A DNA stretch of 14,236 bases from a virus, in IMG/VR virus record IMGVR_UViG_3300045116_000511. One strand, given 5' to 3'. The translations under genes were made by a program, and so were the position numbers. The notes beneath the pieces were generated by a model, which saw nothing but the letters and a program-made list of their open reading frames with translations, was not told the origin of the DNA and made no database searches. Positions 3,070 through 14,236 of this stretch are shown here, one piece after another; positions within the stretch are counted from its first letter, which is position 1; every line of letters begins with the position of its first letter.

Positions 3070-3597
3070 CTATTCTCCAAACAAACTGTCCATGCGCGGT
3101 GGTACCTTGCGAGCGGCGCAGATGCGCAACCACTCGTCTCGTCCCGCATCCCGAAAAAGAGCCCGCGCGTACTCTTCTTCCCAATCAGCGAGAGTTGGCG
3201 CGTGCGCCCGCCCCGCCCGGCGCGCAGGGCCTCGGACAGTCGGCATGCGCGCCGTTTCGTTGCCGCGCTTCATCAAATCCTCAAGCCAGCCCGTCACTCG
3301 CCGCGCCGCGCGCGCCTCGTTTGTGTGGCGGAACAGCTCTACGGCTGAACGAGCCGGATTTTCCTTGGTCCGCGCGTACCAAGCCTCGGTGAATGCTTGT
3401 CCTTCCAAGACTTCACTCATCAGTGATGTGTCGTCACTCGACACCTGCGCCTCGACGCGCCGGACCACGTCGTCTGCCTGGCTGTTCACAAAACCGGAAG
3501 CGCACACTCGCTTGGTCTCCCACAACCAATTGATTGGCTGGTCTGTAGAGTTCTCGCCATTTTGAAGTCTTCCAGCCACTGAGCCTTGCCATCTCAT
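3070..3597 (-). CDS. Arg/Ala-rich hypothetical 175-aa protein encoded in a ~65% GC island.
   Basis: ATG 3597 overlaps the TGA of the upstream gene (ATGA), with SD AAGGtaaggcATG. The TAG stop is coupled to the next gene's SD. The antisense ORFs 3092-3565 and 3099-3392 are typical artefacts of high-GC DNA. Confidence 0.6.
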   Translation of the reverse strand: MRWQGSVAGRLQNGENSTDQPINWLWETKRVCASGFVNSQADDVVRRVEAQVSSDDTSLMSEVLEGQAFTEAWYARTKENPARSAVELFRHTNEARAARRVTGWLEDLMKRGNETARMPTVRGPARRAGRAHAPTLADWEEEYARALFRDAGRDEWLRICAARKVPPRMDSLFGE

Positions 3598-3968
3598 GCC
3601 TTACCTTTAGTTCTCAGGTAAGTCTCATTCACGATGTTTACCTGCCGGTTGAATTCTTCCAAGGCTTCGTTGTCACCGTGCAGATTCCGAAGCAAAGGGC
3701 TGTCAGTCCCAAAGAGGAAGGCTTTGGCTTCCATCGAATCAGGCCCATGCTTACAAACAATGTTCATATACGCTCCCAGCAAGTCTTTCGCCAGGAGAGT
3801 ACCGGAGCGCAGATTCTCTAACCGATGCTCCTCTTTGTCAATGGCTTCTTTGATCTTTTCTCTCGTATTGTCACGCGCAAAGATGGACATTACGATCAGC
3901 CAGCCAAGATAGACCAGCAAAAATACTGCGCCAAACAAAATCAAAATTCTCAGTTCCACTTGAATCAT
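3594..3968 (-). CDS. Membrane-anchored 124-aa protein (N-terminal TM helix, charged helical C-terminal part).
   Basis: MIQVELRILILFGAVFLLVYLGWLIVMSIF then ARDNTREKIKEAIDKEEHRLENLR...; SD GGAG 6 nt upstream of ATG 3968. It lies immediately downstream of the SPFH gene. Confidence 0.6.
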   Translation of the reverse strand: MIQVELRILILFGAVFLLVYLGWLIVMSIFARDNTREKIKEAIDKEEHRLENLRSGTLLAKDLLGAYMNIVCKHGPDSMEAKAFLFGTDSPLLRNLHGDNEALEEFNRQVNIVNETYLRTKGKA

Positions 3969-4049
3969 AATGATCTCCGTTTCAATCCTCTCACATAGCT
4001 AGAGCATCAAAGTAGCCTGGTTGCCCCGACCACTCAGCGGAACTTATTT

Positions 4050-5417
4050 CTACTTCACAGCAGAGGCTACTGGAGTCACAGGCGCAACCGGGCCGGCGGC
4101 TGGTACATCTCGGACAATGCCCATACTCCGCATGAGCCACATGCTCACCAGATTGCCCATCCAATCTTGTTGCCCACCGCTGCCGCCACCCAACATGAGG
4201 GTCTGTGGGGCTTGAATGGCAGCCAGTTTGGCGGCGACCTCCACATCGCGCTTTGCGGCGATCTCAGCAAGCGTTCGTTCCTTCTCAGTGATAGCACCAC
4301 CTTTGGCGATTTTCTCTGATTGTGCCTCAGCAAGTACTCGGATGGCCTTTGCCTCAGCTTCGGCCGTTTGGACTTTGACTTCAGCAGCTTTCTTTTCCAA
4401 TTCGGCAACGGATAGCGCCTGCTGGGCTTTGGTCTCAGCCTCTTTCTTCCCCTGATCAGCAACAGCAACTTTCTGCTGGGCTTCGAGCGTTGCCACTTCC
4501 TTCTGCCGCTGAGCGTTGGTCACAGCAGTCACCTTTTCGACATTCGCTGCGGCTTCTGATTCCGCTGCCTGTCGCTTGCCTTTTTCAACCACCATTAAAC
4601 GCTGTTGCACTTCTTGCTCACGATCTGCCTTGGCTTGCTCGGCCTTCTGGAAAGACTCTTTCTTTGTGGCAAATCGTTCTAAAGTCTGTTTGTCGTAGTT
4701 GGTTGAAGTCACGCTGAATTGCAGCACTTCAAAACCGTATTCTTTCAGTGGGCTGATCTGACCGATCTTGGGTTTGCCCTTTTCGTCACGAATGATTTCT
4801 GTAGCAAAAACCGTGATTGGGTTCCCTTTCTCATCAGTCGCATCATGGAAGGTCTTCTCAATATGTCGCATCTCGTAAATGCCGTTACGCAACATGTCTT
4901 CGACAATCTGGGTAAATTCGGCTTTACGAGCGGATTGATGCTCTGATGAGGACATAAGTGGAGCGGCGGCCTTGCAGCAATTAATCATGTGCGCATGGAC
5001 TGCTGCTGCCATGTTATCCACGCTGCCGCTGAATTCGCGGTGAGCTTTTAGCCTCAATTCTTCAGTGCGAGGTGTGGCAAAGCGGATCATCGTTCCGAGG
5101 CCAGCAGTACCACCATCATTGAAGGTCACACGGTTGGTAGGATCACCTTCCTCCGCATGTCCCTTCTCACCCCCAAATTCATGTTGTACCGCACGTGGAT
5201 AAGTCCAGACATGGGCAAACATCTTCATGTACCAGCCTGGCTCATCCCTTACAGAAACGCTACCAGTTACCGACTGAATAATCTGCCAATCTTGGGCGTT
5301 ATTCAGTCCAAACCCACCAGTCACAAGGACTATCAGGACAATCAGCACAAAGATGCCGAGTCCTCCATAGAAAATGTGCCGCTTGCCAAGTCGAAACTCG
5401 CCAGTGTCTCTTGTCAT
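4050..5417 (-). CDS. SPFH/band-7 domain protein, flotillin-like (N-terminal TM, SPFH core, long Ala/Glu/Lys/Gln coiled coil).
   Basis: From ATG 5417 (SD AAGGAActaagATG): MTRDTGEFRLGKRHIFYGGLGIFVLIVLIVLVTGGFG (TM), then an SPFH-like core, then EA-rich heptads (...AEAEAKAIRVLAEAQSEKIAKGG...) as in flotillin/YqiK-type proteins. TAG stop at 4050-4052. The track's longer form from ATG 5474 adds FCMKGT x2 encoded by the tandem repeat. Confidence 0.85.
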   Translation of the reverse strand: MTRDTGEFRLGKRHIFYGGLGIFVLIVLIVLVTGGFGLNNAQDWQIIQSVTGSVSVRDEPGWYMKMFAHVWTYPRAVQHEFGGEKGHAEEGDPTNRVTFNDGGTAGLGTMIRFATPRTEELRLKAHREFSGSVDNMAAAVHAHMINCCKAAAPLMSSSEHQSARKAEFTQIVEDMLRNGIYEMRHIEKTFHDATDEKGNPITVFATEIIRDEKGKPKIGQISPLKEYGFEVLQFSVTSTNYDKQTLERFATKKESFQKAEQAKADREQEVQQRLMVVEKGKRQAAESEAAANVEKVTAVTNAQRQKEVATLEAQQKVAVADQGKKEAETKAQQALSVAELEKKAAEVKVQTAEAEAKAIRVLAEAQSEKIAKGGAITEKERTLAEIAAKRDVEVAAKLAAIQAPQTLMLGGGSGGQQDWMGNLVSMWLMRSMGIVRDVPAAGPVAPVTPVASAVK

Positions 5418-5421
5418 CTTA

Positions 5422-5457
5422 GTTCCTTTCATGCAGAATGTTCCTTTCATGCAGAAT
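5422..5457. repeat. Perfect tandem direct repeat, 2 x 18 bp (gttcctttcatgcagaat), in the SPFH gene leader.
   Basis: Read directly: 5422-5439 is identical to 5440-5457. On the minus strand each unit reads ATTCTGCATGAAAGGAAC, so it carries an in-frame ATG and an AAGGAA SD-like element. Confidence 0.9.
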
Positions 5458-5482
5458 ATCACACCATGTGACATTACTCTAA

Positions 5483-5513
5483 ATTATAAGAGCGAAGGAA
5501 GACCATATTACAA
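5483..5513 (-). promoter_or_regulatory. Candidate sigma70-type promoter for the SPFH gene (TTGTAA, 19-bp spacer, TATAAT).
   Basis: On the minus strand: TTGTAA (5513..5508), then tatggtcttccttcgctct, then TATAAT (5488..5483). The -10 is perfect but the spacer is long (19). The predicted TSS is near 5475, next to ATG 5474. Confidence 0.35.
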
Positions 5514-5531
5514 TCCGCCGAGAAGTTTGGG

Positions 5532-6032
5532 CTATTTGTCTTTAACGCAATTGACTAACACGTTGGCAGCCTTCGTTCTCTGATCACTCCACCCACCACT
5601 TGATGGGATTTCTTCCAGGATGGCTTGCAGTTGTTCTCCAGTTAGTTTCGGCCAGTCAGCAAAGTTTTTCGTTGCCTTTGCACGATCAGCGATCAGGTCC
5701 ACTTTGTCTTGATCTCTCACCGCAGCCACGGCGGCGTATAGAGCAGCCCACTCACCGGGCATCGTTTGAGCAATCGCCTGCCGTTTCGCTTTAGCCTCAT
5801 CAGAAGCAGCAAGCACGTTGCTTATGGCCGGAGCAATCACATAGATGGACATCAGAACCAGAAACGCAGCTCCGGTCACAATCCAGATTGCTTCGATGGG
5901 TACATAAAGGGCAAAGGGAAACACGGGCACCAGAATTGTACGATGCCCGCAGGCAGGACAGTAAGTTCCCCCGCTTTTCAGCTTAAGACCATGCTTCTCG
6001 CAAACTGGATTATTACACTTTTTGCTACGCAT
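5532..6032 (-). CDS. Zinc-ribbon (CxxC-x15-CxxC) protein with two TM helices and a cytoplasmic C-terminal domain, 166 aa.
   Basis: MRSKKCNNPVCEKHGLKLKSGGTYCPACGHRT, then TILVPVFPFALYVPIEAIWIVTGAAFLVLMSIYVIAPAI. ATG 6032 overlaps the end of the upstream ORF by 8 nt. Confidence 0.65.
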   Translation of the reverse strand: MRSKKCNNPVCEKHGLKLKSGGTYCPACGHRTILVPVFPFALYVPIEAIWIVTGAAFLVLMSIYVIAPAISNVLAASDEAKAKRQAIAQTMPGEWAALYAAVAAVRDQDKVDLIADRAKATKNFADWPKLTGEQLQAILEEIPSSGGWSDQRTKAANVLVNCVKDK

Positions 6033-6531
6033 GCGAATTCATGATCTCTTCTTCCGTTGTTCGGCGGACGATAAGGCGGAAGCCTTCAATGACAATAGGC
6101 GTCTTTTCCCATTGACAATCCGATTGTGCTCGCAACTCCACAAACTTCCTGGCTCGTTCTTGTAGCGTTTTGATCTCAGCCTCGGTCGGTTTGGCGTCAA
6201 AGAAGATCGCAACGCTATTATAAGCTGGCCACTGATGTTTTACTTTCTTGGCTTTCGGATCGGTTTCTCGGTAATGTTGGCCGTTACCGTCATTGACCCA
6301 ACCCGGAGTGGCCCAAAGACTATACGGCAACGGACCATATTCGCCATACAGCGACACGAGATGTTCGTTGGGTTCGTCGTCCTCCCCAACTTTGTTTTCC
6401 TTGCGATACCGCTTGATCCATTCATCCTCGCCTTCTTCATTGTCGTAACCATTAAAACCGACAACGAAACCGCACATCTCGCGCTCGAAGTTACCGGCAT
6501 AACTGTCGGTATCGATGATAAAGACATACAA
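6025..6531 (-). CDS. Hypothetical acidic protein (C-terminal 168 codons as listed); the true N-terminus is unresolved.
   Basis: The track start at 6531 is TTG. The first ATG is at 6477. The frame stays open upstream to 6762 and encodes a zinc ribbon. Confidence 0.5.
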   Translation of the reverse strand: MYVFIIDTDSYAGNFEREMCGFVVGFNGYDNEEGEDEWIKRYRKENKVGEDDEPNEHLVSLYGEYGPLPYSLWATPGWVNDGNGQHYRETDPKAKKVKHQWPAYNSVAIFFDAKPTEAEIKTLQERARKFVELRAQSDCQWEKTPIVIEGFRLIVRRTTEEEIMNSHA

Positions 6532-6789
6532 TTCATCAGGCGGTAAATCTACTGAGTAAGTCCCTGGATATTTTTGATTGACCGCGGCCGTAATGGCATC
6601 ATCGCTGTCATTACCGAACGAAACCTCGCCACAGTTTCGGCATTTAGAAATCGGAACTTCTGGAACTGTGATGTCAACCAGCTCGCCTTTTACTCGAACT
6701 TTGAGGGCATAGTTTTCCAGCGTAGCCGGATAAACTTCTTGCTTCAGGCAAGTAACACAACGCTAGGGATACGGCTTCGACTTAGGCAT
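6532..6789 (-). other. In-frame upstream extension of the 6025-6531 ORF encoding a CxxC-x28-CxxC zinc ribbon with no canonical start; an upstream in-frame ATG (6789..6787) is separated from it by an amber TAG (6763-6765).
   Basis: Own translation: ATG CCT AAG TCG AAG CCG TAT CCC TAG | CGT TGT GTT ACT TGC ... reads MPKSKPYP*RCVTCLKQEVYPATLENYALKVRVKGELVDITVPEVPISKCRNCGEVSFGNDSDDAITAAVNQKYPGTYSVDLPPDE-LYVFIIDTD. Between the TAG and the TTG at 6531 there are 77 stop-free codons and no ATG/GTG/TTG. Confidence 0.5.
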
Positions 6790-7786
6790 CTTTCTCAAGA
6801 TAAGAGTCAGATACGATCTTGAGCATCACGCGCCCAATCTCCGCATCATTGCGTTCTTTCTCTGGGATGATCACGCAGCCTTCCCGGACATGATCAGCAC
6901 CGGGCCAGGTACTGCGCCCTTCCGAGAGTGAAAGAGCAATCTTGGCGTCAAACGGCCCTTTGTAGAGCAGAGGCACCCATGCCACTTTCGGGGTGACCAT
7001 CGCATAGGCTTCGTCAAAATCCAACCACTGATTCTGTTTCAGAACAGCAAAAGCGGCAAAAAAGACATCGTTCCTTTTTGCCCCGTACTTGAGCTTCTGG
7101 ACCTGCCCAAAAACTTCGCCGTACAGAATCAGAGTCGGGTGTTCCTTGCACCACTCTCCAATAGCTGGATTTCGGTGGAATGCCATCCACCAGTAGTTCT
7201 TGTCATCTTCAGCCAGCCAGTTGGTCCGCGAGCCGCAGAACTGTTTCCATTCCCCATCCTTGTCCTGGGCGTAGGTATATCTGGCGTTAGCTCCATGAAT
7301 CTTCTCGGTGATTACAACGGGCTCGCCAGCCGTAAACATCTGGAAGTAGCGCTGGTAGCATTCGACATCGAACTTAGGACAATACAGACCCGAAGGCCCA
7401 CCAACAAATAGCCCACCCGAAGACATGGGCAGCGGGGGCTCATATCGCTCAATGCCAAGTTCGGCAATGACGTTAGCGCCCACGGATCGATCCAGCAATT
7501 CCGGGGGCACCGGGATTAGCAGTCCCTGACTGAGCGCCCCCTTGAATCGACGGACTCGAATGCGTTCCTGCGGTTTACCATCTTCGCGCTTCAGAAACGC
7601 AAAAGATGGATTAGAAATTGGCACGAGATAATCCGGTGGGATATAGATCGCCAGATCACCCTCTTTGAAGTCGTCTTTGCCGATACAGCACTGCCAACCC
7701 CAGATGCGGGTAATTGCAAGCCGATCAGCGTTGGCGTGAGGCTCAATTTTACCGATTTGGACAATTTCAATTCGATGTTCGCTCAT
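6782..7786 (-). CDS. ATP-dependent RNA ligase, Rnl2-like nucleotidyltransferase with an N-terminal OB-like domain (Rnl5-type domain order), 334 aa.
   Basis: From ATG 7786 (GGAG 9 nt upstream); the codon at the track start 7807 is TTG. Motif I VVITEKIHGANARY (KxHGxN as in T4 Rnl2), motif III-like LILYGEVFGQ, motif IV-like DVFFAAFAV, motif V-like EGCVIIPEKE. N-terminal RIEIVQIGKIEPHANADRLAITRIWGWQCCIGKDDFKEGDLAIYIPPD resembles a tRNA-binding OB fold. Confidence 0.8.
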   Translation of the reverse strand: MSEHRIEIVQIGKIEPHANADRLAITRIWGWQCCIGKDDFKEGDLAIYIPPDYLVPISNPSFAFLKREDGKPQERIRVRRFKGALSQGLLIPVPPELLDRSVGANVIAELGIERYEPPLPMSSGGLFVGGPSGLYCPKFDVECYQRYFQMFTAGEPVVITEKIHGANARYTYAQDKDGEWKQFCGSRTNWLAEDDKNYWWMAFHRNPAIGEWCKEHPTLILYGEVFGQVQKLKYGAKRNDVFFAAFAVLKQNQWLDFDEAYAMVTPKVAWVPLLYKGPFDAKIALSLSEGRSTWPGADHVREGCVIIPEKERNDAEIGRVMLKIVSDSYLEKDA

Positions 7787-8217
7787 GCGGCATTGCTCCG
7801 TTTCCAAACAACAAACTCATAAAACTGCTGTCTGTTATTAAACTTCCAGCCGAACTTTTTATGAAAACTGATATGACATTTTCGGCACAAGCAAACTCCA
7901 TTGTCTAAGTCCACTCTCAAAGAGGGATTGGCGTGGTAGCTTTCAAGGTGGTGACTCGCTAACTCACCGCCGTGTTTGTTGCATACGACACATCTAAAAC
8001 CATCTCTTTCCTTTATCGCGATTCTCCATGCGCGGAACTCTTCTCTAATACGCCGATCCTGTCTCTCTGAATCGGTGAGTCGCGAATTCCAGGCTGGATT
8101 CTTATCTCCCGTCTGAGATTTCAGTCTTTCGTAATTCCAGCAACCACATGACTGAGTCGTTCCGCCTATAAGCGAATTGCGGAAAACAACGCATACGTTA
8201 CCACATTCTCGCCGACG
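7783..8217 (-). CDS. HNH endonuclease (His-Me finger). The open frame runs from the in-frame TAA at 8218-8220 to a TGA overlapping the RNA-ligase ATG, with no ATG/GTG/TTG before the catalytic core. Candidate ATT start at 8049 with an AGGA SD.
   Basis: Own translation: ...FRAWRIAIKERDGFRCVVCNKHGGELASHHLESYHANPSLRVDLDNGVCLCRKCHISFHKKFGW... (CxxC..HH..N..CxC..CH..H). It is not in the ORF track. The first canonical in-frame start, TTG, lies after the HH dyad. ATT (8049..8047) is preceded by AGGA with 7-nt spacing. A frame-1 ATG at 8194 plus a 1-nt change in the T4 run 8183-8186 would also give a full ORF. Confidence 0.55.
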   Translation of the reverse strand, partial: RRRECGNVCVVFRNSLIGGTTQSCGCWNYERLKSQTGDKNPAWNSRLTDSERQDRRIREEFRAWRIAIKERDGFRCVVCNKHGGELASHHLESYHANPSLRVDLDNGVCLCRKCHISFHKKFGWKFNNRQQFYEFVVWKRSNAA

Positions 8218-8909: not shown

Positions 8910-9245
8910 TTATTTCTTCAACACAGTATACGCTGCAATAATCCGTTTGGCTCTTTCATTGGACTCTTTGGTATTGCCACATCTATCTGGGTGGAATCGG
9001 AGCATCAGCATGCGATACGCATGCTTGATTTCGTCCTGAGTCGCATTCGGGCTAACACCAAGAATCACCCACGGTGAATCTGGTTGGCCGGAAAGAATCT
9101 CTTCGGCTTCTTCTCGGCCCATCGCCTCAGAGAAAGCTTGACGCCACTGAGCGGCGCTCCCGGCCGGGCCGACGTAAGTACCGTATGGCGACTGGTCAGT
9201 CCAGACGTTACGCTTTGGTTTATTGGGATCGCGCTGTCGAGGCAT
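8910..9245 (-). CDS. J-domain (DnaJ N-terminal domain) protein, 111 aa, with the J-domain at the C-terminus.
   Basis: WVILGVSPNATQDEIKHAYRMLMLRFHPDRCGNTKESNERAKRIIAAYTVLKK carries the HPD tripeptide and flanking helices. SD GGTGG. First gene downstream of a consensus promoter. Confidence 0.85.
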   Translation of the reverse strand: MPRQRDPNKPKRNVWTDQSPYGTYVGPAGSAAQWRQAFSEAMGREEAEEILSGQPDSPWVILGVSPNATQDEIKHAYRMLMLRFHPDRCGNTKESNERAKRIIAAYTVLKK

Positions 9246-11426: not shown

Positions 11427-12158
11427 TTGTCAATGGTTGGGTATGTTCTAACGAAGAGGATTGTGACGAATTTCGCTGCATATATGTTGATGGAAACCAG
11501 AACGTGCAAAACCTGCGGTATTGTCAAGAACATTCGATCATTCCCCGAGAGATACGCAATAAAGGGAGGCAAGAAATACAGGCGTCACCAGTGCAACAGC
11601 TGTCGTTGCCGACGATACAAACCGCGCTATCGAAAAACTTTTAGAGATATCGCGAAACGATGCAGGGCAAAGTACAATGCAAACAAATCTGAGATGAAAA
11701 AGAAACTAATGGCTGCTGTATGGCAAGAAAAGTGCATTATATGTGGGGAGCCAGACCCCGTCATATTGTGCTTCCACCATCGATCAAAGATCGATAAAAA
11801 ATTCTGCGTTTCCTACGGATTCACACACTCTTATGGTTTTGACACTCTACTGGATGAAGCCAAAAAGTGCGATGTAATATGTCATAATTGCCACGCAAAG
11901 AACCACTCAAACCAGTTGCCAAGCCGCCACAAAGATAGGATATTTGAACACATAGGCGACAACAAATGCAAGACATGCGGTGAAAGTGACGCTAGGACAC
12001 TTTGTTTCCATCACCACGACCCGTCAAAAAAAGAGTTCAAACTATCTTGTAGATTTCGGCGCGGCAGATCATGGGAACAGGTATTATCTGAGGCCAGCAA
12101 ATGTATATTGCTATGTGCCAACTGTCATATCAGACTCCACGCAACCCGAGCTTTTTAA
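11427..12158 (+). CDS. Tandem-HNH nuclease (two CxxCG..FHH..KC..C(H/A)NCH modules) with an N-terminal CxxC..CxxC zinc ribbon. Freestanding homing-endonuclease-like, AT-rich, and the only confident plus-strand protein gene.
   Basis: Module 1: CIICGEPDPVILCFHHRSKIDKKF...EAKKCDVICHNCHAKNH. Module 2: CKTCGESDARTLCFHHHDPSKKEF...EASKCILLCANCHIRLH. N-terminus: CKTCG...CNSCRC. The start is ambiguous: the track start 11427 is TTG, and ATGs occur at 11433, 11484 and 11490. The AAGAGGA at 11453-11459 is not well spaced to any of them. TAA 12156-12158 overlaps the convergent SWIM gene by 29 nt. Confidence 0.7.
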   Translation: MSMVGYVLTKRIVTNFAAYMLMETRTCKTCGIVKNIRSFPERYAIKGGKKYRRHQCNSCRCRRYKPRYRKTFRDIAKRCRAKYNANKSEMKKKLMAAVWQEKCIICGEPDPVILCFHHRSKIDKKFCVSYGFTHSYGFDTLLDEAKKCDVICHNCHAKNHSNQLPSRHKDRIFEHIGDNKCKTCGESDARTLCFHHHDPSKKEFKLSCRFRRGRSWEQVLSEASKCILLCANCHIRLHATRAF

Positions 12159-12456
12159 TCCACTCGGCATTTCGTCCATGCGCTCGCCCTTTGAGCCCCA
12201 TAGCGTCGAGATGCTTGCATTTTCCATGTCGGATGTTTCCTCTACAGCTGCATTTCCAATATCCTGCACCTGGAGACGAATCAAACGAAATCCGGTAAAT
12301 GCTATCACTGCTCTCGGATCGGATGTCGAATCGACATTTGTAGCGAGTGTCATCTGGATGCAGGGCAACTGCGGCACGCTGTGCTGATGCTGGAAGCAGT
12401 TGAATAGAGTTCACTTTTTTCTCCTTTGTTTTGGTCTTCCGCTTTGCTTTAGCCAT
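12130..12456 (-). CDS. SWIM-type zinc-finger protein (CxCx9CxH), 108 aa, with a basic N-terminus.
   Basis: MAKAKRKTKTKEKK... then WKCSCRGNIRHGKCKH. SD AGGAGttgaagaATG. A consensus promoter lies immediately upstream. Confidence 0.65.
   Translation of the reverse strand: MAKAKRKTKTKEKKVNSIQLLPASAQRAAVALHPDDTRYKCRFDIRSESSDSIYRISFDSSPGAGYWKCSCRGNIRHGKCKHLDAMGLKGRAHGRNAEWIKKLGLRGV
12197..12234. repeat. Right copy of the 38-bp core repeat, lying inside the SWIM gene.
   Basis: See 11353-11390. Confidence 0.85.
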
Positions 12457-12470
12457 TCTTCAACTCCTGC

Positions 12471-12499
12471 ATTTTACCACAGGGCCGCCGAAATGTCAA
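12471..12499 (-). promoter_or_regulatory. Consensus sigma70-type promoter (TTGACA, 17-bp spacer, TAAAAT) upstream of the SWIM gene.
   Basis: Plus-strand tgtcaa at 12494-12499 and atttta at 12471-12476 read on the minus strand as TTGACA-17-TAAAAT. The predicted TSS falls within or next to the AGGAG SD, implying a very short leader. Confidence 0.5.
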
Positions 12500-12758
12500 A
12501 CGACTTGGACCTTGTAAATTGCTTTTGAGACGGCTGGCATGCCTATCGCCACCACTTTCTCCTGGCTGGAACGGGATAACCTGGCTGCCGCCGATATTGT
12601 ATCGGTCTGGAATGCGTTTACGTCTACCCATTAGCCGTAATTCTAACATTTTGCCGCTGAATGTCATTGAACTACCACACTCACAAGTGGTGGGGATTCC
12701 CAAACTTCTATGCGACCTTTGGTCGCAAGGGTCTCTGGTGAGCCAGATTCAAGTGGCT

Positions 12759-12787
12759 CATTTGTTGAACATCTAGCTCAACAAATG
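12759..12787. other. Perfect 10-bp stem hairpin (catttgttga / tcaacaaatg, 9-nt loop), one of a cluster of hairpins in a non-coding region.
   Basis: Read directly. Neighbouring hairpins: 12736-12756 (gagcca...tggctc) and 12800-12818 (gctgtctc aaa gagacagc, 8-bp perfect stem). Confidence 0.5.
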
Positions 12788-12913
12788 TTTCGTGACCCTG
12801 CTGTCTCAAAGAGACAGCCAACTGGTCCGAGTGGTTCTCCCTGAATCACGGAAACACGTTTGGATGAGAACATGTAGGAAACCAGTTATGTTATTATACA
12901 CGCTCGCATTCAT

Positions 12914-12940
12914 CCCCGCCCATAAAGGGCGGGGTTTTCT
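12914..12940 (+). terminator. Rho-independent terminator oriented for plus-strand transcription (ccccgccc ataaa gggcgggg TTTT), with no annotated plus-strand gene upstream.
   Basis: 8-bp GC stem, 5-nt loop, T-run 12935-12938. There is no A-run on the other side, so it is unidirectional. Confidence 0.55.
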
Positions 12941-12953
12941 GCGAGCTATCTAT

Positions 12954-12989
12954 AAAAAAGCCCTGTCCCGGTTTGCGCCGAGACAGGGC
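12954..12989 (-). terminator. Rho-independent terminator for the minus-strand SPFH gene that ends at 13012.
   Basis: On the minus strand: stem gccctgtc / gacagggc (8 bp, 14-nt loop) followed by TTTTTT (the reverse complement of aaaaaa at 12954-12959). It lies 22 nt downstream of the TAA at 13012-13014. Confidence 0.65.
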
Positions 12990-13011
12990 GGGATCAGGAG
13001 GGGGACACGAG

Positions 13012-14236
13012 TTAGTCTGTGTCGCTCTCAGTGGACTGGATGCCAGCGCCGAGCCGGTTTACAATGTTCGCCAACGGAGTCCCGTTAAAGACCTTCGTCA
13101 GCACCTCAACCACGCTCTCGCCGCCAATCAGTGACTGGATCGAAATCGCCTTTGCCGCCTTGGTCAGCACATCGTCGCGATTCAGAGCCAGCAGAGCCTC
13201 TGCCATCTTGCCATCGGCAGCTTTGAAGCGACTGATGGTTGATTCGCTCTCTGCCACAAGTTGCCTCAAAGTCAGCTCCAGACGTTTCTGCTCAACGTCA
13301 TGGTCATGACCGTCTTTCTCCACCACTCGCTTCATGTTGGCGTTGTGACGGATGTCCTCGACTACCTCATTGGCTTGAGCCTGCTTTTGCTGTCCCTCAA
13401 CCTTCTTCATGATGGCTTCGAGATTCTGCGCCTCGACTTCCATTTCCTTACGCAGAATCTCTTGTTCTGTGGACAGCTGCTGTTTGCGGGTATCCGCAGT
13501 CGCCACATTGACTTGCTGGTTCAGTTTCTCCTGCTCCAGCTTGCCCGACACATTACGCCGAGCATTCTGCAAGTCAATGTTGGCTTTCACCGCCGCAAAC
13601 TGCGCCGACATGAGCAGATTTGCGACGTTCTGGTCAGCAATTGTGAAACCCAGGACTTCGACATCCTGGACGATCATGCCGTTTTCCTTGAAAGGCATGC
13701 CCTTGCGGACGCCCTCGACCGAGTGGCCCAGAATGGCGTCACGAATGATCGGGACGTGATTAGCATAGAACTCTTCGATTGTGTGAGTCTTGACCACACC
13801 TTTGAGGACCGAGCGGACGTGATCGCAAAGCAGCTTGACGTAGTTCTCGACTTCAAACCACTTGTCCGGCTCACCGTCGAAGTTAACGAGCAGCGAAATC
13901 TTCACGGAGACCGAAACGTGATCGCTGGTCTCGACATCGATGATGTCAGAAACTTTGTTGTTGCGCGTCCGCAAGTAAACAGTGCGCTCCAACTTGTCGG
14001 TATTCTTCGGCTTGCCTGTTGACAGTTCCAGCACTTCCAGTGACTCGTCGTAGTCAAGCAGAATCGTAGTCGGACCCTGCTCAACGCGCCGACCACCTTT
14101 CTTGTCTACCACCATGACGGCATACCCTGTCCACACGTTGATGGTGGGGACGCCATCATATTTGGTATCCAAGGTGATCGAGCGGGGCTGCGTATACGAC
14201 GTACCACGCTTGATTGTATCTGCTGCGGATAGTTGG
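13012..14236 (-). CDS. Second SPFH/band-7 domain protein (C-terminal >400 aa); the 5' end lies beyond the window.
   Basis: The track 'start' at 14172 is TTG and the frame stays open to the window edge (..QLSAADTIKRGTSYTQPRSITLDTKYDGVPTINVWTGYAVMVVDKKGG..). SPFH-like core (...VPIIRDAILGHSVEGVRKGMPFKENGMIVQDVEVLGFTIADQNVANLLMSAQFAAVKANIDLQNARR...), then a Gln/Glu/Lys-rich coiled coil. TAA at 13012-13014. Confidence 0.8.
   Translation of the reverse strand, partial: QLSAADTIKRGTSYTQPRSITLDTKYDGVPTINVWTGYAVMVVDKKGGRRVEQGPTTILLDYDESLEVLELSTGKPKNTDKLERTVYLRTRNNKVSDIIDVETSDHVSVSVKISLLVNFDGEPDKWFEVENYVKLLCDHVRSVLKGVVKTHTIEEFYANHVPIIRDAILGHSVEGVRKGMPFKENGMIVQDVEVLGFTIADQNVANLLMSAQFAAVKANIDLQNARRNVSGKLEQEKLNQQVNVATADTRKQQLSTEQEILRKEMEVEAQNLEAIMKKVEGQQKQAQANEVVEDIRHNANMKRVVEKDGHDHDVEQKRLELTLRQLVAESESTISRFKAADGKMAEALLALNRDDVLTKAAKAISIQSLIGGESVVEVLTKVFNGTPLANIVNRLGAGIQSTESDTD

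Follow-up and report, generated by a model that had tools for sequence, protein, structure and literature searches.

The stretch of DNA analyzed here, IMG/VR virus record IMGVR_UViG_3300045116_000511, is a complete 14,236-bp metagenome contig from the Joint Genome Institute (JGI), referred to throughout as the window. Nearly all of its long open reading frames (ORFs) lie on the minus strand, where they are densely packed and co-directional. An earlier reading of the window, made from its letters alone (the sequence-only reading), had singled out a membrane module of three adjacent genes, called A, B, and C below, in which B encodes a flotillin-like SPFH protein, and had placed a second SPFH gene from position 13012 onward. 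All four ORFs were found, each on the minus strand and in or close to the place given by that reading:

5532–6032, minus strand: gene A, 166 amino acids (aa), upstream of B.
4050–5417, minus strand: gene B, 455 aa; the maximal ORF is 4050–5474.
3594–3968, minus strand: gene C, 124 aa, downstream of B.
13012–14235, minus strand: major vault protein (MVP) homolog, 5′-truncated, with a frame that runs off the contig end.

The best start of gene B is the ATG at 5417, which is preceded by AGGA at a 6-nt spacing, and the ATG of gene C has GGAG 6 nt upstream. At both outer edges the trio runs into other genes: the stop of 6025–6531, the gene before A, and the start of A overlap (ATGCGTAG), as do the stop of C and the start of 3070–3597, the gene after C (ATGA). 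True intergenic gaps around the trio are present only between A and B (114 nt) and between B and C (81 nt). Because A and C overlap their outer neighbors, the sequence does not delimit the trio as a unit.

We modeled B with AlphaFold2 (AF2) on an alignment of its family. The predicted local distance difference test (pLDDT) score of the model is 77 overall and above 85 at residues 20–290, and the following parts are distinguished:

Residues ~16–38 (nt ~5304–5372, minus strand): transmembrane (TM) segment, seen as a hydrophobic segment and as an AF2 helix.
Residues ~36–241 (nt ~4695–5312, minus strand): SPFH alpha/beta region of the AF2 model.
Residues 243–370 (nt ~4308–4691, minus strand): continuous, Glu/Ala-rich coiled-coil helix of 128 residues in the AF2 model.
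Residues 419–431 (nt ~4125–4163, minus strand): conserved hydrophobic C-terminal helix of the AF2 model.

The membrane anchor consists of hydrophobic residues 20–38 (mean Kyte-Doolittle value, 2.8) and is modeled as a helix spanning residues 12–35. Within the SPFH region, a beta-rich segment is followed by an alpha/beta segment; beyond residue 370, the model continues with a shorter helix, a Gly-rich linker, and the hydrophobic C-terminal helix. When the model was compared with the PDB by Foldseek, the 50 matches listed were SPFH cage proteins only (probability 1.00). The best match was the HflK/C-FtsH complex (7vhq, E = 1.2e-8), followed by prohibitin (8rrh, E = 5e-8); flotillin, stomatin, erlin, QmcA-YbbJ, and MVP were also among these 50. 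The modeled fold thus shows B to be an SPFH-superfamily protein, and a very divergent one. The profile of the B family (37 sequences) gave zero matches to PDB sequences at E < 1, and the HflK/C chains in the PDB were matched by B in neither phmmer nor hmmsearch. Likewise, no NCBIfam match was obtained at E ≤ 0.01, and the PADLOC search came back empty. Some members of the B family do carry a precomputed match to Pfam Band_7 (PF01145), and B itself is matched end to end by phrog_11908 (E = 3e-42), a family of unknown function. The TM helix, SPFH domain, and long Glu/Ala-rich coiled coil that the sequence-only reading had recognized in B agree with the AF2 model and with Foldseek. Its assignment of B to the flotillin/YqiK type does not agree with the predicted orientation: the charge bias described below points to the opposite one. 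In addition, Pfam Flot is not matched at E ≤ 0.1, and only the long helix is flotillin-like.

The B family comprises at least 388 members of 42%–93% identity, mostly on viral contigs of 40–476 kb; almost none of them is named. IMG/VR yielded 34 loci of the family, many on viral contigs 100–476 kb long. The surroundings of the closest relatives of B resemble the auxiliary regions of large phages, with genes for WGR-PARP, NAD synthase, PRPP synthetase, Thy1, radical-SAM, and PspA proteins. SPFH proteins encoded by phages had been annotated before this analysis; among them are the distant relatives of B in crAss001 (gp91), Aeromonas phage MQM1 (MQM1_057), and Vibrio phage CHOED (CHOED_059), which are 27%–29% identical to it. 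The reason for the presence of SPFH proteins in phages has been called unclear (PMC13239085), and a large comparative study of jumbo phages makes no mention of them (PMC7824862). Full-text literature searches found no paper that gives a function for a phage SPFH protein.

The gene downstream of B proved to be a conserved companion of SPFH genes. In the four loci closest to the window (L004–L007), a homolog of C lies directly downstream of the SPFH gene. The SPFH proteins of these loci are 55%–93% identical to B (93% in L004) and their C homologs 38%–80% identical to C, with an invariant core common to C and all four homologs, ...VCKHGP.S..AK.F.FGTDS...LH.D.EA..FN.Q. A profile search of 1.84 billion representative proteins yielded a C family of about 55 cluster representatives, nearly all 105–155 aa long, which is marked by the motif Y..MV.KHGPDSEEAKAFRFG in its small helical domain. 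C has no match in Pfam, PHROG, NCBIfam, or PADLOC, and it is absent from crAss001, MQM1, and CHOED.

The AF2 model of C, based on 45 sequences, has a pLDDT of 92.5 and is entirely helical. A long helix (residues 2–74) supplies the one N-terminal TM helix and a stalk, and short helices follow at residues 79–88, 91–97, and 100–120; a search for fold relatives of the model found none. In bacterial SPFH operons, the place of C is held by NfeD. Since the model of C is all-alpha and lacks an OB-fold, and since Pfam NfeD (PF01957) is left unmatched by C, as it is by A (E ≤ 0.1), we conclude that C is not an NfeD protein. These results bear out two proposals of the sequence-only reading, namely that the flanking genes of B are not the usual NfeD partners and that the downstream one encodes a helical protein with a single TM segment.

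Twenty further C loci were collected; of the 17 matches to a degenerate DNA pattern for C, 14 proved to be true C genes. An SPFH gene is adjacent to C on the same strand in 16 of the 20, with gaps of −31 to +135 nt, and hence in 21 of 25 loci once the window and L004–L007 are included. The usual order is SPFH gene and then C, and it is inverted in L048/L049, L051, and L053. Two kinds of SPFH partner occur, namely B-family proteins and members of a separate clade of 381–383 aa, whose proteins are bona fide Band_7 members (56–61 bits) and barely match the B profile. Adjacency that outlasts both inversion of the gene order and divergence of the partner is good evidence for a functional pair of SPFH protein and C. 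C represents a previously undescribed, conserved family of SPFH partners, which the sequence-only reading had missed.

A second candidate partner was encountered among the more distant relatives of B. In about 19 of the 34 IMG/VR loci (among L008–L036), another TM and coiled-coil protein is encoded directly upstream of the SPFH gene. Proteins of this family are 80–113 aa long; their TM helix is N-terminal, the juxtamembrane motif is S..F..F-like, and the coiled coil is charged. The family appears to replace C in more distant clades of the B family. The possibility that C or A is a relocated version of this upstream partner was rejected, hhalign finding no relationship for either.

Gene A encodes an N-terminal, zinc-ribbon-like motif of four Cys residues (Cx4C-x13-CxxC, residues 6–28), followed by about 44 hydrophobic residues (33–76), which probably form a helical hairpin, and by an Ala/Glu/Lys-rich tail. 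It belongs to no Pfam, PHROG, NCBIfam, or PADLOC family, forms a singleton cluster in a collection of ~15 billion proteins, and has no relatives in IMG/VR. Even in L004, whose SPFH protein is 93% identical to B, the SPFH gene is not preceded by A, and in L005–L007 a WGR-PARP gene occupies that position. By these sequence comparisons, A is an orphan, lineage-specific neighbor and not a conserved member of a module. The Cys motif and the hydrophobic stretch described in the sequence-only reading are there, but the place that it gave this zinc-ribbon, two-TM protein in the module is at odds with a singleton that is missing from related loci.

The gap between A and B holds three features:

5483–5488, minus strand: perfect −10 hexamer TATAAT, in the 114-nt A–B gap, downstream of A.
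5459–5471, minus strand: palindrome TCACATGGTGTGA, just downstream of the −10 hexamer; its form in L004 is TCACATAGTGTGA.
5422–5457, minus strand: 18-nt tandem duplication, two copies of ATTCTGCATGAAAGGAAC, so that the ribosome-binding region of B is present twice.

The trio had been credited with a promoter of its own on account of the perfect −10. The hexamer is indeed present, but being located downstream of A it cannot drive the trio and could serve only B and C. Moreover, it has no −35 element at 16–18 nt (TTGTAA is 19 nt away), and the site was not reported by a promoter scan. The homologous position in L004 reads TTGACT-17-TATTAT, and it is precisely here that 22 nt are deleted in the window. 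From the sequence, a transcription start near 5483–5488 is plausible; large phages frequently rely on phage-specific promoters. The palindrome, which the window and L004 share in the form TCACAnnnTGTGA, could be an operator or a hairpin in the 5′ untranslated region. The 18-nt repeat at the ribosome-binding region of B occurs as a single copy in L004.

To predict the orientation of B and C, we determined the net charge of the 15 residues on each side of their TM segments. Among known SPFH proteins, HflK/C and prohibitin are oriented N-in/C-out, and QmcA, YqiK, and flotillin are not so oriented. In the B family (n = 37), the mean net charge is +1.9 before and −0.5 after the TM segment; the corresponding values for the C family (n = 45) are +0.3 and +3.2. 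By the positive-inside rule applied to these flanks, B is predicted to be N-in/C-out (type II), with its SPFH wall and coiled coil in the periplasm, and C is predicted to be N-out/C-in, with its helical domain in the cytoplasm. In three loci, C is followed not by an SPFH gene but by a gene for a predicted lipoprotein of ~180 aa (L055, 2673–3248; L062, 1080–1628; L064, 3365–3889), which has a lipobox (...PGC/MGC) and belongs to no Pfam family. This partner would also be exported, which is consistent with partners of C on the periplasmic side.

All SPFH proteins of solved structure oligomerize into a ring or cage. B most likely serves as a membrane-anchored cage at the host inner membrane. For the locus as a whole, we incline slightly toward a two-gene membrane module, in which a cage of B on the host inner membrane is combined with C as a new single-pass partner. 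B would form a ring or cage standing on the inner membrane, its short N terminus in the cytoplasm, and C would contribute its TM helix and a cytoplasmic helical domain of ~60 residues in the opposite orientation. The TM helix of C may associate with the TM ring of B or with the patch of membrane enclosed by the cage. C would then be the cytoplasmic handle of a periplasmic cage, as either a stoichiometric co-subunit or a corralled client. Over the lengthy infection cycle of a large phage, B and C together might reshape the inner membrane of the host or protect it, or they might sequester one of the host's membrane proteins, for example FtsH.

Several observations weigh against this two-gene module. 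The match of B to Pfam Band_7 (22.3 bits, E = 1.6e-4) falls below the gathering score of 23.6; since it is sub-threshold and PDB sequences are unmatched, the SPFH assignment of B rests on structure, and the C-terminal third of the model is of low confidence (pLDDT 40–68). The topology is read by the positive-inside rule alone. If that topology is correct, the soluble domains of B and C lie on opposite faces of the membrane, which would leave only the TM helices and short flanks for any contact between the two proteins. In 4 of the 25 C loci the SPFH gene is not adjacent; L060, a short contig, has neither an SPFH gene nor the lipoprotein gene beside C. All 34 IMG/VR loci of the B family are without C, and B can therefore work without it. 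Finally, neither a client nor a host nor the time of expression is indicated by anything in the window.

Other explanations of the locus share some of this evidence. Since HflK/C of E. coli and prohibitin form cages that enclose FtsH-type proteases on the periplasmic or intermembrane-space face, B could, in line with a proposal of the sequence-only reading, be a phage mimic of HflK/C, building a periplasmic cage around host FtsH that alters the degradation of phage or host proteins, with C as an adaptor or decoy. The predicted N-in/C-out topology of B equals that of HflK/C and points weakly in this direction, as do the two best structural matches, 7vhq and prohibitin, both of which partner FtsH-type AAA proteases; the TM helix and cytoplasmic domain of C also resemble a corralled client. 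However, the Foldseek E-values of flotillin and stomatin are only 10–100 times weaker, and the ranking does not discriminate between these proteins. B shows no sequence similarity to HflK or HflC in NCBIfam or among PDB sequences, a single SPFH gene rather than an HflK/HflC pair is present here and in related loci, and the nearby genes include no FtsH-related gene or known FtsH substrate. We consider such a mimic unlikely. Nor do we think it at all likely that the module governs traffic across the envelope, whether by superinfection exclusion, by blocking or assisting DNA entry, or by timing lysis together with holins and spanins. A periplasmic location would fit such roles. In crAss001, the SPFH gene (gp91) lies between genes for small TM proteins and the peptidoglycan hydrolase gp89, four small membrane proteins follow the SPFH gene in Vibrio phage CHOED, and a function in adsorption or DNA entry has been speculated for an SPFH lipoprotein of a Schitoviridae phage (PMC13239085). 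Yet the crAss001, CHOED, and MQM1 proteins are only 27%–29% identical to B and come without C, the window ORFs that were scanned yielded no lysin, holin, or spanin family, and the closest loci are neighbored by metabolic and counter-defense genes, not by lysis genes.

A role in membrane maintenance or counter-defense, in which the module would work with a phage PspA against damage or against membrane-depolarizing abortive-infection effectors, can draw on a PspA_IM30 gene located ~9 kb from the SPFH–C pair in L006/L007 and found also in L061, and on the NAD synthase and PRPP synthetase genes that recur nearby. There is a precedent in the B. subtilis pspA-ydjGHI system, in which PspA is recruited by YdjI, an SPFH protein, together with two membrane proteins; one of the latter, YdjG, begins with a CPNC motif (PMC8581546), a superficial resemblance to A, B, and C. 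On the other hand, the window ORFs scanned did not include a PspA, PspA works on the cytoplasmic face, opposite to the periplasmic location predicted for B, YdjI has no TM helix, A is not conserved, and the likeness of YdjG and YdjH to A and C remains superficial; we rate this role as quite improbable. It is hardly credible that the three genes A, B, and C constitute a fixed module under a promoter of their own. They are adjacent and co-directional, each encodes a membrane protein, and TATAAT is present at 5483–5488, but the hexamer is downstream of A, A is an orphan absent from every related locus, and translational coupling ties A to the preceding gene and C to the following one.

The two-gene module of B and C remains our preferred account. 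The context is phage-like, as supported by the PHROG matches, the IMG/VR loci of the B family, and the huge-phage matches of the MVP homolog. Jointly with the B–C membrane module, and so with the same slight inclination, we judged the window to derive from a large uncultured phage of the jumbo or huge-phage type, as a fragment with an auxiliary-gene region. Among GenBank phages, the whole window had no Megablast match, and no tRNAs were found in it.

The second SPFH gene of the sequence-only reading turned out to be of another kind than B. The 13012+ protein matches MVP_shoulder (PF11978) with 88.2 bits (E = 5e-25, cut-off 25) and Vault_3 (PF17795) with 34.3 bits (E = 2.7e-8, cut-off 28.8). 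In phmmer, it aligns with residues 465–715 of rat MVP (E = 5e-16), and the alignment with human MVP reaches residue 796. It contains the last vault repeat, an SPFH-like shoulder domain, and a coiled coil resembling the cap helix; JGI's own name for it is "major vault protein." Because its frame is open to the last base of the contig, the gene is 5′-truncated and the listed TTG start (14172) is an artifact; the translation upstream of it, ...DTIKRGTSYTQPRSITLDTKYDG, matches the homologs. We collected 226 homologs of up to 671 aa, with full-length examples of 505–660 aa; overall, full-length homologs measure 420–660 aa and have one to few detectable repeats, and some full-length relatives also pass the Band_7 threshold. 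The closest matches among GenBank phages were uncultured huge phages, LR756500 (462 kb) and LR756501/LR756503 (735 kb), at 49%–52% identity, and relatives are also found on the phage-like contigs L042 and L043. Bacterial MVP-like proteins have been described (bioRxiv 10.1101/872010); full-text literature searches found no paper describing phage MVP genes.

The MVP shoulder is regarded as a homolog of the SPFH domain (PMC13347060). The description of the 13012+ protein as a second SPFH paralogue is therefore right at the level of the superfamily, but the protein is an MVP homolog and not detectably related to B: a sequence paralogy of the two was rejected on an hhalign probability of 4.5%. No TM helix is visible in the part of the protein that is present. 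We conclude that it is a separate, soluble SPFH-superfamily member, 7.5 kb from B. A PADLOC match of the MVP-like protein to PbeC (E ~1e-3) covers the coiled coil only and was disregarded. The 555-nt gap that follows the gene (12457–13011, minus strand) contains a series of near-perfect hairpins, the first of which is a canonical intrinsic terminator (12-bp GC stem and U6); the region folds at z = −8.3 relative to shuffled sequences. The sole Rfam match, HgcC at 27 bits (cut-off 50), fell on the GC-rich hairpins of this gap and was judged spurious.

Three other genes of the minus-strand array were assigned by family matches:

6025–6531, minus strand: phrog_23621 protein (PHROG match), next upstream of A.
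6782–7807, minus strand: Rnl-type RNA ligase (PF09414 and the PHA02142 OB domain).
8910–9245, minus strand: stand-alone small J-domain protein (PF00226, 56 bits), the sole NCBIfam match in the window.

A J-domain is also found fused to a kinase near the MVP-like gene of L043. The gene downstream of C and translationally coupled to it (3070–3597) encodes a 175-aa orphan that has no match in the family libraries; it lies in a GC-rich patch (0.61 versus ~0.47 on both sides) and is not kept beside C in other loci. The only long ORF on the plus strand (11427–12158) encodes a Cys/His-rich protein of 243 aa in which C..C ... H..H/C..C.H blocks are repeated; these might be tandem modules of HNH or zinc-finger-like type, and the protein has no match in Pfam or PADLOC. 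On the minus strand, 12130–12456 encodes a 108-aa protein whose CxC...CxH pattern (CSCRGNIRHGKCKH) recalls a SWIM zinc finger; Pfam gave no match at E ≤ 0.01.

The eukaryotic vault includes MVP, vPARP, and TEP1, which contains a TROVE module, and in bacteria Ro60 and RtcB are combined in RNA-repair loci. Genes of related kinds recur around phage SPFH and MVP genes. WGR-PARP is encoded directly upstream of the SPFH gene in L005–L007 and near the MVP gene in L043; TROVE/Ro60 proteins are present in crAss001 (gp96) and L040; and RtcB or Rnl RNA ligases are encoded near phage SPFH or MVP genes in the window (6782–7807), L015, L019, L023, and L048 (L048/L049). In P. aeruginosa, the SPFH gene PaFlo8 is reported to lie inside the rtc RNA-repair locus (PMC13086221). 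Because PARP, TROVE/Ro60, and RNA ligases echo components of the vault and of Ro60-RtcB loci, one may imagine by analogy that large phages build two SPFH compartments, the B–C cage and a soluble mini-vault, perhaps as a vault-like ribonucleoprotein or RNA-repair organelle. We give this idea very little credence; the recurrence of these genes could be a coincidence within auxiliary-gene regions.

Overall, what the sequence-only reading observed is partly confirmed, and its interpretation is partly supported. The locus is best restated as a large-phage SPFH scaffold with a new, non-NfeD TM partner, to which A is incidental, and with a separate MVP homolog in the same window. The cages formed by HflK/C, prohibitin, flotillin, stomatin, and the vault have recently come to be seen as one universal architecture for compartmentalizing membranes. 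The B–C locus, where a new small TM protein stands in for NfeD as the partner, offers a concrete handle on the role of SPFH proteins in phages. If B and C form a complex, they would make a compact system for communication of an SPFH cage across the membrane and for the needs that large phages have of the envelope. The MVP homolog, for its part, extends the known distribution of vault-type proteins to huge phages and bears on the debated origin of the vault.

Compared with known systems, the 13012+ gene has the same last repeat, shoulder, and cap helix as rat and human MVP, but eukaryotic MVP, which assembles into a 78-mer barrel, has nine N-terminal repeats, far more than the full-length homologs of the 13012+ protein, which are encoded by huge phages and known from genes alone. 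The B. subtilis pspA-ydjGHI module likewise associates an SPFH protein with membrane proteins, one of which starts with a Cys motif, and PspA is encoded near the pair in L006/L007; YdjI, however, is soluble and cytoplasmic, whereas B is anchored by a TM segment, and PspA is missing from the window ORFs scanned. HflK/HflC and the prohibitins resemble B in their N-terminal TM helix, in the N-in/C-out orientation predicted for B, and in the succession of an SPFH domain and a long wall helix. They differ in that the coiled coil of B, with 128 residues, is about twice as long, and HflK and HflC form a heterodimeric pair with no detectable sequence similarity to the single phage-encoded B. The SPFH proteins of crAss001 (gp91), MQM1 (MQM1_057), and CHOED (CHOED_059) belong over their full length to the same PHROG family as B (PHROG 11908), but these phages lack C, and the clade of B is found on much larger viral contigs. 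The SPFH–NfeD operons (QmcA-YbbJ, YqiK-YqiJ, and FloA/FloT-NfeD; cryoelectron microscopy structure 8z5g) also combine an SPFH protein with a small membrane protein, and they share with B and C a tight or overlapping linkage and an order that varies between lineages. Unlike NfeD, C has one TM helix, is all-alpha, and has no OB-fold; the SPFH domain of B is predicted on the face of the membrane opposite to that of QmcA and YqiK; and the B–C pair is carried on phage contigs.

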